This document shows, piece by piece, positions 2,174-50,745 of a DNA stretch of 64,000 nucleotides. Positions within the stretch are counted from its first letter, which is position 1, and the number at the start of each line of letters is the position of its first letter. Both the position numbers and the translations under genes were made by a program. The notes beneath the pieces are model-generated. The model saw nothing but the letters and a program-made list of their open reading frames with translations. It did no database searches and was not told where the DNA came from. This DNA comes from Eledone cirrhosa. Its lineage: Eukaryota. Location of the stretch: NCBI GenBank assembly GCA_964016885.1, contig OZ024750.1:4216001-4280000 (forward strand). The letters are read 5' to 3'.

Positions 2174-2247
2174 TATTATATTTTATCTGATGAAAGCACA
2201 CCATAATTTAACTTGGTGTCCTTGAAATATGTATAATGAAATAAATA
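2174..2247 (+). ncRNA. Minimal type I hammerhead ribozyme (C.C subfamily)
   Basis: Helix I tattttat/atgaaata; CUGAUGA 2187-2193; helix II aag-C-acacca/tggtgt-C-ctt; GAAA 2224-2227; UAUGUAUA; AUA triplet 2233-2235; host element about 2041-2287 between (TA)n tracts. Confidence 0.8.
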
Positions 2248-2864
2248 TGGTTTTATAAATATAGTTTCCATTTGTTAATATTTCGTATATATATATATAT
2301 ATATATATATATATATATATATATATATATATATATATATGTATATATATATATATATATATATATATAGTGTGTATCTTTAGCTCTATAAAACACTACC
2401 TCAACAAAGTCACATCCAACCCATGCCAATCATAAAAACTATGATAAAGATGATTAACTACTGCAAAGTATTTAGTCAGATATAACTGTTTCAGGTACAT
2501 CCAGTGTCCTTGCAATGCCAATAAATATGTGTGTGTGTGTATGTGTGTCTGTGTGCATGCGTGTGCGTGTGTTTGTCTGTGAGTGTGTCTACCTCAGTAC
2601 ATGTGTGTGTGTGTGTGTGTGTGTGTGTGTTAACTACCAAAGTGGTCTGGAAATAACTAAATCCCTGGCTAGTGGCTAAACTATCTAAATACCCACTGGC
2701 TTACAACTTTACTTAATCACATGCTGTTGCACACGCCCACACATGTCAAATATATCTAACAAATATATATATAAATATATACATATGTACATAAATATCA
2801 ACGCAGTATATTAATGTGTGTGTGTGTGTGCTTACGTGTGTGTGAATTGAAGAGTGATAAAGGC

Positions 2865-3278
2865 ATACATACATACCATACATACACATACATATATACC
2901 ATACATACATACATTACATACATATATACCATACATATATATATATATATACCATACATACATATATATACCATACATATATATATATATATATACCATA
3001 CATACATATATATACCATACATATATATATATATATATACCATACATACATACATAAATACATACATATGTACATACATATATATACCATACATATGTAC
3101 ATACATATATATACCATACATACATACATACCATACATACATACATACATACATACATACATACATATGTACATACATATATATACCATACATACATACA
3201 TACATATATATATACCATACACACATACATATATATACCATACATACATAAATACATACATACATACATATATATACC
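2865..3278. repeat. (CATA/TA/CCATA) compound microsatellite
   Basis: Directly visible. Confidence 0.95.
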
Positions 3279-3780
3279 ATGGTGGCTGCCAACTCGTTTT
3301 CGAGTACGGCCACTACTTTATATCCATGTAGGAGAACCCTTACCGATGCGCTGAACGAGTGTGACCTTTTAGTCCAGCCAGCGACTTGACAACTCTGGTA
3401 CAAACACTACACTTGTGACAATTATGACACAGTGCCATATTGACACATATATACCATACATACATATATATACCATACATACAGACAGACAGGATGCCAA
3501 ATCCCAAAGGGAACTAAGAACTTTACAAAAGCCTGATGAAAGGAACCAGAGTTGTGATACATCAATCATCTTGTCTAACAGGTTGGGAACTATAAAAGGA
3601 ACGATTGACTTTCAACAAATTGGACCGAGGAAACAATGTTTCCGTTGGTCTTTCCAATTGCTAATACTATCTATTGGTCGCAACTCCAGGTAGAAGGAGC
3701 AACGTGAAATAAAGTGTCTTGCTTAAGGACATGACGCATCGCCGGGTCGGGGAATCGAACTCACAACCTCACGCTTGCGA
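3279..3780 (-). mobile_element. SINE group B head with a long, distinct 3' body
   Basis: Reverse strand reads B-box gagttcgattcc, then ccttaagcaagacactttatttcacgttgctcc, then about 400 bp of body; the body's attachment and distal boundary are inferred. Confidence 0.6.
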
Positions 3781-4334
3781 ATCCAATTCTCACAAGCGTG
3801 AGGTTGTGAGTTCAATTCCCCGACAGGGAACTATCTATGTACAGAAAATATTTATTCTGGACAGAAATTCTCCTTGAGGAACAACTAGAAGCTTATAACA
3901 AGACTTCAGCCTGTGGAAGGATCTAAAACCATCTGTAAAGGAAGTCTGAAATATATCTATCAAGAATTGACTATAGAAACATCCATTGATTGATTTCTAT
4001 ATGTAAGAAGAACAATCTATTGTGCTACAAAACCTTTGGTTCTTCCTCCTTCTTATATTAGTTTAGTCGTCAGTCTGGTAGAATTGTTACAGTGTTGGAT
4101 AAAATCCCTTGTGGTGTTTATTCTGGCTTTCTAAACTCTCGGTTCAAATCTCATATAGGTCAGCTTTGCTTTTCTGGAGTTGGTAAATAAAGTAACATTC
4201 CAAGGCAGTAGATTTGGTGAGGAACCAGACCTGCCAACTTCTAAAAACCCAAACGGAGAGTACCATGAAAAAGGTGCTCCAAAACGGCAAGAAATGAGAC
4301 AAAATGGGGAGATTTTATATAATGGTTTCTTATA

Positions 4335-4540
4335 TAGGCACAAGGCCAGCAATTTGGGGGAGAGGGAAAAGTCAATTAAATCGACCCCAGTGCGTGACTG
4401 GTGATTTATTTTATTGACCCCGCAAGGATGAAAGGCAAAGTTAACCTCGGCGGAATTTGAACTCAGATCATAAAGGTCCGTAACTCTTTGCTGCAAAGCA
4501 TGGCATCCGACCCTTTACTGATACGGCCAATCCATCGCCC
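4335..4540 (-). mobile_element. tRNA-derived SINE group A
   Basis: Reverse strand reads ggcgatggattggc...gagttcaaattccgccgaggttaactttgcctttcatccttgcggggtcaataaaataa. Confidence 0.85.
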
Positions 4541-4995
4541 TCAGAGATTTTCTATAATGAAAGCTATACCCATTTTCACTAGAGAAGACATCTCTCACCC
4601 ACCCCAAAGTGAGTGAGAGATCTCCCCATCAGACAGGGAGAGTCGACAGATCTGTGGAACTATTGGGGACTCAAATGCAATATTAGTATTTGAAACAGTA
4701 TTTGTTCTGGCTCTGAGTTCAAGTTCTGTCTGTGCTCTAATGTCCAGTCCTAATCACCCAACAATGTAAACATTTCACCTAATCCAATCCTGCTCTTGTC
4801 CAGTGTAGACAGGTAGACCTCAAACCAGCTGAGTTGCTGAGATATCATACAACACTGTATCATAAATAGCTCAGTGTCCTACTACATTGCTAAACTAAAC
4901 TTTAACTTAACATTGTAGCTCCACTGATCATAATTTGTCCTTATGTCTAATTAATAACTGGTTATATTATGTATAATATAACCAGTTATTAATTA

Positions 4996-47678: not shown

Positions 47679-48261
47679 TTAAAAGAGGGCAACAGTCTAC
47701 CATCCAAGAACAGATGCAGTTCGAACTCAAAGATTGGTTTGACTGTCTGCTACGTTAGAAGAAACTAATATATTTCTAATAAAAGCACTACCTAGGATTT
47801 TAAAATTATTTTGGAAATAATCAAGAATTTTGAGTGATTTAATTCTCCTCCTTATCATTTAGTGTCCATTTTCCATGCTAGCATGGGTTAGACATGTGTT
47901 GTACTAAATTTAGGTAACAATATAAAACCAATGCATTTTATATATTGAAAAAACGCAGTAGTTCAAGAAGGGAAACTATTTTATTATAAAGCTGGAGTGT
48001 GGAACTTATCTTAATGGAGGTTCTCACATAAAATTAAGAAGGAAGGCTTTTTAAATCTTGCAGACCACTAATATGAATTAATGGTCAATGGTGGAAACAA
48101 TACTGAAGCGTACATGTGTCATATTGTCAATAGTTGATAAATAGGTGTAAAATTCTTTCATGGATGTTAGTTCTTTACTGAGGAGAAACATTTTTTAGGG
48201 GGTGCGTAGATATAAAATATATTTTAACCGAATATTATTTTTGTTTTATTATTAATAAAAA

Positions 48262-48450
48262 GGGCAGTGGATTGGCAGTATCGGTAGAGCGTCAGACACC
48301 ATGCTTTACAGCATAGAGTTATGGCCCTTTAGGTTCTGAGTTCAAATCAAGCTGAGGTTAACTTTGCCTTTCATCCTTATGCGGTCAATAAAATAAAGTA
48401 CCAGTAATGCACTGGGGTTAATTGCTGGCCTTGTGCCAAAAGTAGAAACA
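48262..48450 (+). mobile_element. Full-length SINE group A with target-site duplication
   Basis: ATTATTAATAAAA at 48248-48260 and 48451-48463. Confidence 0.9.
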
Positions 48451-49699
48451 ATTATTAATAAAACATAAAAATTGTAAATAATGTCCACATTTTACTGCGG
48501 ACCACCAAAATATTCTCCCCGGGGGTCACCAGTAGTTCTCAGACCACTGGTTGGTTACCACTGCTTTAAAAACAAACAATATCCATTCATTGATTCAGTT
48601 GTTCATTCATTGAGAATACCTCCAATCTGTATGCAGTATTATATTCTGTTTCACCTGCTTTCACATTTATACCACCTGTAATTTAGTTTGCCAATCATAG
48701 TCAACTTTCAAAGCTACAAGTTTGAATTACTTGCAAATAATAGTAGAGCAGAATTATTTCTAGGTAGATTATATACTAACTTTACACATACTACTAAATC
48801 TAGAACTATGCTGAAATACACATACACTGATGCACACACGCACATGCACACACGCACAGACACACACATGCATATATATGTAACTGACATCATTGTTTTT
48901 AATTTATGTCTAGACTACATCTGTTCAGCATCTGTTGTTGTTGTTGTTGTACTACTACCACTACTACTACTACTACTACAAATGCTGTTTTACTGCTACT
49001 ATTGGTGCTACTACTAGAGTTAGCATCACCACCATCACTACCATCACTACCAACCACCACCATCACCACCATCACTACCAACCACCACCATCACCACCAT
49101 CACCACCATCACCACCATCACCACCACCATCACTACCATCACCACCATCACTACCAACCACCACCAGTAGCAGTGCATCAGTTTTCACCCATTTTGTCTA
49201 TCTCAATAGTGTGTGCGTGTGTGTGTGTGTGTGTGTATATGTGTTTATGTGTGTGCATGTGTTTATGTATGCGTGTGGGTTCCCTGTTGTTTTTGTAAGG
49301 ATTCAGCAGTTAACTGCTAGAAACAATAGTCAATATCCCCTCAAATCACACACATAGGGTCTGCTCAATCAGATCTACCCCGGAGCTAAACATCAATAAC
49401 TAAGAGAACCTTTATTTTCCACAATAACCAACAACACAACCACTCAAACTGCTAGATATAGCAGCCAAATCTACCACTTTTCTTACAGTCTTTAAAAAAA
49501 AAAGGAAGGATACAATGGATGATGTGAGTATTGGACTTGTATCAAGTTGAACAAGTGCATCAGTTGTTTATTTAAATAATGGAACAACCTGTTCTTGATG
49601 TTAAGATGCACAGTGGCCGAGGACTTCACCGACACGTGCACCCTTAATGCAGAATTAAACTTAATAACGATGACACAGGATTGAGATCTCTGGCGTTAT

Positions 49700-49860
49700 A
49701 ATATAATAATGAAATTATTGTGTACAGTGCTCAGGTGCACTACAACTCATCAAAGGTGCATGTATAGTACATAGAATAATGTACAAATGTCAGGGAAGTG
49801 AACAGTGTGTGAGTCATGATATACAATATTAGTTGTACTGTTGGCGAATCTCTGGAAGCA
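49700..49860 (-). mobile_element. Probable LINE 3' end, homolog of 36853-37050
   Basis: gtgcactacaactcatcaaaggtgcatgtatagtacatagaataat is shared. Confidence 0.55.
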
Positions 49861-50690
49861 TCTTCTACTGCAGAAGACCTGACTTCCCATGTGCTCAAGA
49901 TGAAACTAACGTGTAAGAGGACACTAGTCTGCACCAATCTCCTCTCTCTCTCCTCCCTCCCCCATTCACCCATCCCAGTTTTAATATCCCCACCCATTGC
50001 TAAATATCCCATTCACTGCCATGTCCAACTTACATACTTGTCCTTCCCACAATCTTCACCCTTGATATACCTCTTCTGTCCAACCTATTCACACATGCTT
50101 GAAAAAGCTGGACATGCTCTACATTTGCTCTCCCATGAGGCTGCTACCATGACAAAAAAGCAAAACTCTGTCCACCCTGTACGGTGATCTGGTGCCACAA
50201 CAAAGGCACCCAGTTCACTCTGTATAGTGGTCATATTGGTGACAGGAAAAAAAAAAAAAGCACCCAGTCCACTTTGTAAGGTGGTTGTGTTGGTAACACA
50301 AAAAACAACAACACGCCCAGTACACTCTGTAAGGTGATCATGTGGACTGGGCGCTTTTTGACATGTCACCAGCACAACCACCTTACATGGTGGACTGGAC
50401 ACTTTTTGTCATGTCACCAACATGACCACCTTATAGAATGTACTGGGTGCTTTGTTTCTTCTTTTAGTGACCCCAACACAACCACCTTACTGGGTACTTT
50501 TTTTTCATGTCACCAATATAACCACTATACACATTAAATATAAAGATGTAAGAGTGACACTTGGATGGAATTGTCATTGAATGAAAGATATAGAACACAT
50601 TTGATACACTGTGTGTGATATATATATATATATATATATATATATAAATTTTGAGTATATGTTGTACCTGTCTCTACCACACCAATTCGG

Positions 50691-50745
50691 ACTGCTTGAA
50701 GACGTCACAGCCAACGATGGCTGTCACCGAAATATATATAGCAGT
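50691..50745 (+). ncRNA. Hammerhead motif (C.C subfamily) with C3-to-U change
   Basis: actgc UUGAAGA (50696-50702) cgt-C-acagcca/tggctgt-C-acc GAAA (50729-50732) UAUAUAUA gcagt. Confidence 0.7.

Follow-up and report, generated by a model that had tools for sequence, protein, structure and literature searches.

Hydra-clade Penelope-like elements (PLEs) are retrotransposons whose defining features include the RWK, DKT, CxCX5C, CxxC and CxH motifs and the lack of CCHH (PMC8557442), and published alignment rows of their hammerhead ribozymes show a C10.4-G11.4 pair in helix II in 16 of 26 cases, counted by eye (PMC8557442). Penelope hammerheads cut poorly alone, that of an Anolis element cuts only together with its protein (PMC11167929), and cutting is dispensable for insertion in vitro. 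Here we describe six hammerhead motifs in a window of 64,000 nt from Eledone cirrhosa (contig OZ024750.1, 4,216,001-4,280,000, within a 3.0-Gb genome), all lying in terminal-repeat stubs of Penelope-like elements and all bearing a C.C mismatch at position 4 of helix II. The variant is real, and its unpaired C10.4 is probably selected.

A sequence-only reading of the window had listed six helix II strings with this mismatch, and each of them is present exactly as claimed. The motifs and the insertions that carry them are as follows, where pLTR denotes the terminal repeat and letters denote families.

2147..2285, forward strand: stub of a 3' terminal repeat (pLTR), family B/C, 93% to the full-length element L031; core of the hammerhead 2187-2193, helix II 2194-2223, C10.4 at 2197, C11.4 at 2220; predicted cut after 2235; (TA)n from 2286
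12579..12809, reverse strand: family D pLTR stub; core of the hammerhead 12677-12671, helix II 12670-12644, C10.4 at 12667, C11.4 at 12647; cut predicted after 12632; (TA)n running downwards from 12578
24036..24173, forward strand: pLTR stub of family C4, with the weakest helix II among the six; hammerhead core 24081-24087, helix II 24088-24112, C10.4 at 24091, C11.4 at 24109; predicted cut after 24124; (TA)n from 24174
38491..38646, reverse strand: inverted 3' tail piece of the same element as 38660..38815, 89-92% to the L031/L032 tail in opposite orientation
38660..38815, forward strand: pLTR stub of family B, 90-92% to L032; hammerhead core 38717-38723, helix II 38724-38754, C10.4 at 38727, C11.4 at 38751; predicted cut after 38766; (TA)n from 38816
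40035..40204, reverse strand: inverted 3' tail piece of the family F insertion at 40202..40350, 93% to L278 in opposite orientation
40202..40350, forward strand: pLTR stub of family F, 93.5% to L278; hammerhead core 40249-40255, helix II 40256-40287, C10.4 at 40259, C11.4 at 40284; predicted cut after 40299; (TA)n from 40351
50663..50801, forward strand: pLTR stub, family E, in which the hammerhead is partly decayed; 78% to the full-length element L091; core 50696-50702 (C3U), helix II 50703-50728, C10.4 at 50706, C11.4 at 50725, C.C also at 10.1

The window copies are thus 140-230-nt 3' stubs from five families, two of them with an inverted tail piece, and that at 38491..38646 is the inverted 5' junction usual for Penelope-like insertions. 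The (TA)n tract begins 49-61 nt past the predicted cut, and no part of a frame for the reverse transcriptase and endonuclease (RT-EN) was found in the window. Each motif has the core CUGANGA ... GAAA and an NUH triplet, intact in five copies and with U instead of C at position 3 in the copy at 50696; no extra base follows A9. Because helix I, of 5-8 pairs, closes the core in each copy, all six are type I hammerhead motifs; they are of the dimer type. GAAA-UAU(A/G)UAUA with an AUA triplet recurs in all six, as had been reported, while the constancy of the AUA triplet in our larger samples was built into the search patterns and is not evidence. The absence of the usual G10.1-C11.1 pair had been ascribed to most copies, which understates it: the pair occurs in none of the six (in position order A-U, U.U, A-U, A-U, G.U and C.C) and in 5 of 24 family representatives. 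As a special trait of these motifs the absence does not stand, since published Hydra hammerheads frequently have U.U at 10.1 (PMC8557442), and this opposition is known to be tolerated (PMC3088659).

Rfam hammerhead models gave no match at gathering score in the window, and around 38717 and 50696 none even at E <= 10. A covariance model of the 24 family representatives, with no window copies among them, recovers exactly the six window copies at E <= 2.5e-11 and nothing further below E 0.2. The flanking pairs of helix II had been described as covarying, and this is borne out: the 24 representatives give a covariation score of 0.642 against 0.292 when shuffled (0/500), a score inflated by their relatedness, and 14 of the 18 pairs in helices I and II have changes on both sides. 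Position 3, for example, is U-A in 10 representatives, A-U in 8 and G-C in 5.

Other hammerheads in the window differ from these. One of another family, at 19583 on the forward strand, has a perfect 5-bp helix II without a mismatch, a CGCG palindrome in helix III and a long extended helix I followed by (TA)n. Two copies of a further repeat, at 12897 (forward) and 18404 (reverse), have a hammerhead-like core with an extra G after A9 and represent the classic minimal Penelope type. At 1548 (forward), a hammerhead-like core lies in a strong hairpin ending at (TA)n, with an uncertain helix I register, and is probably decayed.

The abundance of the motif in the genome is far above chance. A pattern in which the core and helix III (AUAU(A/G)UAU) were fixed and helix II was left free found 73,079 matches, against 388 for the reversed pattern as control, and other helix III palindromes gave a further 32,539 against 2,758, so that the lineage numbers roughly 100,000 copies. 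Rfam misses this family, as searches for perfect stems likely would as well. Other helix III types starting GAAA-C/G with C.C were set aside, as their 3,113 matches against 7,707 in the control are mostly chance or satellite. Helix III is an 8-nt palindrome, with the variants AUAUAUAU, AUGAUCAU, AUGUACAU and AUGCGCAU, and it changes only to other palindromes. Its predicted pairing within a monomer is 0.00-0.01 and its predicted self-duplex -2 to -10 kcal/mol; a palindromic helix III is a known dimer design (PMC4209133, in the part available), and two motifs would, on these predictions, cleave as a dimer.

What is constant in this lineage is the unpaired C10.4 rather than the C.C opposition. 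The sequence-only reading had called the C.C invariant, which holds for all six window copies and for 64,327 of the 73,079 AUAU(A/G)UAU matches (88%), but not for the lineage, in which C.U and C.A families have been amplified. The group with AUG(C/U)(G/A)CAU in helix III (20,957 matches) consists mainly of C.U copies (by eye, 92 among the first 100) and contains the element with an unbroken 775-aa frame described below. A short-helix family of 2,525 matches, which has reverse transcriptase remnants of its own, has C.A in 71 and C.C in 29 of its first 100. Among our lettered examples, family N is C.U, F3 is C.A, and B, F and E are C.C. Position 11.4 is therefore C by preference and sometimes U or A, while G at 11.4 occurs in no amplified family sampled within the mismatch lineage. 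Watson-Crick repairs of position 4 number 359 and 525 genome matches and, in at least the first 100 of each listed, are scattered over many families like point mutations, some of the rows being deletions or register artefacts. Position 4 is paired in 0 of 24 representatives, compared with 19-23 of 24 at positions 2, 3, 5, 6 and 7. Among 164 fetched copies, drawn partly from searches requiring C.C, position 4 reads C.C in 129, C.U in 31, U.C in 2, C.A in 1 and G-C in 1, which is the only one paired, versus 151-160 paired at the same five neighbouring positions. Where loci were mostly chosen without a C.C requirement (98 copies), 83 are C.C, 14 C.U and 1 U.C, with none paired. In an old family of 24 diverged copies, found by a pattern that fixed 11.4, C10.4 is kept in 21.

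Parent elements were found by fetching pairs of matches 3-5 kb apart, and they bear out the assignment of this hammerhead subfamily to Penelope-type elements with an RT-EN frame. In L046, L091 and L250, direct terminal repeats that each carry the motif on the sense strand flank such a frame, and L031-L034 have an inverted 5' copy, as is usual for such elements. L250 has an unbroken open frame of 775 aa with a reverse transcriptase, plus an endonuclease of the GIY-YIG type at the C terminus; the Pfam GIY-YIG model matched one of four pieces scanned, at an E of 1.5e-4, just under the cut-off. The RWK motif reads RWK in L091, RWR in L032 and L046 and RWI in L250, all four have DKT in place of DKG, and the translations of L032, L033, L091 and L250 contain the CxCX5C linker, CxxC and CxH and lack CCHH. 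By these protein motifs the parent belongs to the Hydra clade; published proteins were compared with it by eye. The closest outside proteins are 38-44% identical, the nearest one with a name belonging to Argonauta hians (39%). As in the Hydra clade, terminal repeats occur in tandem and inverted form and insertion is into (TA)n; (TA)5 is reached within 130 nt of the cut in 92 of 164 copies and by about 150 nt in most others, and copies end in two classes, about 50 nt and about 135-155 nt past the predicted cut. Repeat-to-repeat lengths are 3.7 kb (L046), 3.9 kb (L250) and 4.1 kb (L091), exceeding 3 kb because of long 3' untranslated parts. Families M, G, H, Q and the small families were not placed by protein, the family M repeat having no Hydra frame. 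One family M element (L270, G000:C1:24253500-24258800) has 3.1-kb direct repeats without that frame and is probably a non-autonomous element that keeps the C.C hammerhead; the helix III type of this family has 6,530 matches. The copies do not match a canonical type I hammerhead or a non-LTR (long terminal repeat) retrozyme, being dispersed stubs of an RT-coding element; neither short tandem repeats nor a conserved contact between loops 1 and 2 was found, and U1.7 occurs in only 14 of 23 families.

The mismatch looks derived, by loss of G11.4 in one lineage, since C10.4-G11.4 occurs in 11 of 11 copies listed from sister Hydra lineages of this genome, as it does in the published rows cited above. 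One sister family (L081-L084 and related rows), probably active until recently, has numerous open frames, 700-919 aa long, and a 3' region of 2.3 kb; the hammerhead that it carries is C-G at position 4, with a bulge lying further out.

Several observations bear out the earlier suggestion that the mismatch is selected, which we consider likely. Between families A, C, E and N, whose reverse transcriptases are 48-81% identical, fourfold-degenerate sites are only 23-38% identical (26-38 sites per pair), and these sites are saturated. On a tree of 23 families, from which one of the two family C4 copies, with U10.4, was set aside, C10.4 changed 0 times and 11.4 once (twice including a later-found family), while ten flanking helix sites changed 3-7 times, with a mean of 4.9, and the free core base N7 changed 4 times. 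The Poisson probability of zero changes at C10.4 is about 0.007 against the flank mean, 0.02 against N7 and 0.05 against the slowest flanking site. At the family level C10.4 never becomes U, while 11.4 becomes both U and A. These counts support purifying selection on C10.4 in the donor elements. A base outside the core that is as constrained as the catalytic core, despite saturated synonymous sites, suggests an RNA read by something beyond catalysis.

We hypothesize that, in the terminal repeats of these Hydra-clade elements, selection on the transposing RNA may keep C10.4 unpaired as a base-specific contact for the element's own RT-EN protein, a reading that we hold tentatively and would not yet call probable. 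The mismatch would cost helix II about 4-7 kcal/mol by prediction, repair of position 4 being predicted to stabilise the helix by 4.2-6.7 kcal/mol, and would leave C10.4 free. The motif would fold poorly alone and need the protein for folding and cutting, as reported for another Penelope-like element, and donors that lost the free C10.4 would insert once but found no new families. The energy model assigns equal cost to C.C, U.C and A.C, that is, to all pyrimidine or A mismatches, whereas the identity of C10.4 is kept; plain weakening would thus be insufficient, and something likely reads the base. The tertiary contact with helix I proposed by the sequence-only reading (its other candidates were a protein or a metal site) found no support, as neither helix I nor the anchored flanks hold a partner base that is conserved, and no RNA partner for C10.4 was conserved enough in helix I, 30 nt upstream or 40 nt downstream. 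Given this result and the precedent of the Anolis hammerhead, the element's protein is our leading guess for the reader. A more specific version, in which C10.4 would be a lineage-specific handle that lets the RT-EN protein recognise its own hammerhead and turn it on, and would have arisen when the ancestral C10.4-G11.4 pair was broken, is more doubtful.

The main rival is a feature of the RNA alone, in which a narrow pyrimidine mismatch would let the long helices I and II pack or would bind a metal ion, standing in for the missing contact between loops 1 and 2. We judge it somewhat unlikely, a little more so than the lineage-specific handle. Canonical helix II ends at position 4; in the Schistosoma structure a loop 1 C stacks upon stem II across from L2.C1, loop 2 being closed by a C:A, and CChMVd(-) employs an internal loop in helix II (both in the available part of PMC2632901). 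Sister lineages also retain C10.4. Yet U1.7 or another helix I partner is not conserved, the precedent is located one pair further out, and many Penelope hammerheads have a long uninterrupted helix II (PMC4209133, in the part available). Less credible again is simple inheritance of the mismatch from one ancestor with repair still to come. All copies are related, independent lineages number about two dozen, C-to-G change is rare in AT-rich elements, and some families were sampled by patterns requiring C.C. This reading is nevertheless the most improbable of those weighed here, because synonymous sites between families are saturated, the neighbouring helix sites have all changed and decay to U would be the expected fate of a free C.

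Two further alternatives, both unlikely, give the mismatch a regulatory use. An upstream RGUAYGUC could pair with the 5' arm of helix II in nascent RNA and keep the ribozyme off, C10.4 pairing with a G there and the mismatch keeping helix II weak enough for the switch. Families A, B/C, D, F, F2 and F3 conserve RGUAYGUC at 27-48 nt upstream of the core (e.g. near 38675 in the window), 5-8 of 8 pairs with the arm are possible and place a G across from C10.4, predictions make this helix dominant in family F and at some nascent lengths of C and F3, and the switch would account for 11.4 being free except for G. Against this, RGUAYGUC and the arm do not covary (score 67 against a permuted mean of 67.9; 10 types), 4 of the 9 types folded give the helix a predicted value of <= 0.18 at each of the three lengths, the upstream element is absent from E, G, H, M and Q, and a downstream UGACUU in E, G and H is mostly not significant against shuffles. 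RGUAYGUC may instead be a splice donor. It resembles a 5' splice site, and L046 has a possible branch point as well as AG acceptors in the interval from the hammerhead to the start of the open reading frame, so the hammerhead may sit inside a 5' intron. Marginally less likely than this switch is attenuation, whereby the mismatch merely weakens helix II without any specific contact and spares the template from cutting before reverse transcription. All copies span the cut site and hence were made from uncut or religated RNA, repair would strengthen the helix by the amount given above, and the 10.1 pair is likewise weak. Any mismatch of equal predicted energy would serve, however, yet C10.4 never changes and the defect in helix II never moves position.

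Several points weigh against the protein-contact reading that we favour. Avoidance of G at 11.4 is the weaker part of the pattern: with only two family-level changes at 11.4, its never being G is weak by itself. In some inverted pairs a repaired pair is common to both arms, so repaired RNA or DNA was copied at least once. The mismatch lineage has weak support as one clade in the endonuclease tree (78/80; its row labelled L033_C2 is the endonuclease of a neighbouring element of a C-G family), and the reverse transcriptase tree leaves it unresolved. Sister C-G lineages transpose well and end at the same spacing of about 48 nt, so the mismatch does not set the end spacing and is not needed for Hydra elements generally. 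The Anolis element inserts in vitro with no need for cleavage or for the hammerhead core (PMC11167929), and binding by the protein and cleavage of the RNA are here predictions. If the version with a lineage-specific handle is true, a single base would determine the protein gating of a natural ribozyme that stands about 100,000 times in one genome and escapes Rfam. The constrained base offers one nucleotide as a target for mutation, and the genome holds natural controls in its C.C, C.U, C.A and C-G families, as well as at least one unbroken 775-aa frame.

Other repeats were seen alongside these elements. A near-perfect inverted repeat occupies window positions 5644-6037, with arms of 186 nt spaced 22 nt apart. 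Weak tRNA-family matches at gathering score, at 29368-29431 (forward) and 46784-46841 (reverse), are possibly the heads of short interspersed elements. Elsewhere in the genome, a satellite-like array (G000:C1:79600994-79679564), about 80 kb long or longer, contains many short units with CTGAAGA...GAAA.

As the sequence-only reading supposed, we found no description of the variant in the literature, including PMC8557442 and PMC4209133. A word search of the available parts of PMC7229834 and bioRxiv 10.64898/2026.07.22.740005 did not find a conserved position-4 mismatch. In other species, a metagenome pattern scan gave 119 loci, of which 0 pass the helix filter. The survey of Lunse et al. 2017, reportedly the largest of such variants, could show this one.

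Hydra-clade hammerheads (Craig et al. 2021, PMC8557442) resemble those described here in a clade defined by protein motifs, a (TA)n target, a type I motif near the 3' end, a short palindromic helix III, frequent U.U at 10.1 and C10.4 in 16 of 26 rows. None of those 26 rows has a mismatch at position 4, where C10.4 pairs with G, and in most of them helix II has 4-5 bp and a small loop, compared with at least 8 pairs here. The published octopus element Hydra-1_Obim has a different hammerhead, and the clade generally tends to be under 3 kb (PMC8557442), whereas the present elements repeat at 3.7-4.1 kb. As far as the available part of Cervera and De la Pena 2014 (PMC4209133) goes, metazoan Penelope hammerheads share the terminal repeats, long helix II, lack of a loop-loop contact, dimer architecture and the scattering of truncated and inverted copies in large numbers. 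The consensus given there includes G10.1-C11.1 and, behind A9, an additional base, neither of which occurs as a rule here, and C.C at position 4 appears in 0 of 56 examples, with single cases of U.U (Clonorchis 2) and C.A (Strongylocentrotus 1) inside helix II that are not described there as conserved. PAc, the Poseidon element of Anolis (Frangieh et al. 2024, PMC11167929), likewise has a hammerhead upstream of two internal reverse-transcription starts that define its tail, and these starts resemble the two end classes seen here. PAc belongs to a different clade, the RNA determinant of protein assistance is unmapped there, and cleavage is dispensable for its insertion in vitro. Canonical type I hammerheads (Schistosoma, and CChMVd(-) with its internal loop 2) also have C at 10.4 and C.C and C:A oppositions atop stem II; in the part of PMC2632901 available, this opposition comes after four pairs and depends on U1.7, on an extrahelical pyrimidine and on a 3' A of loop 2, none of which is conserved in the present lineage. 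Penelope and Hydra hammerheads and weak 10.1 pairs are thus already known, and what sets the Eledone lineage apart is a conserved, apparently undescribed, mismatch at position 4.

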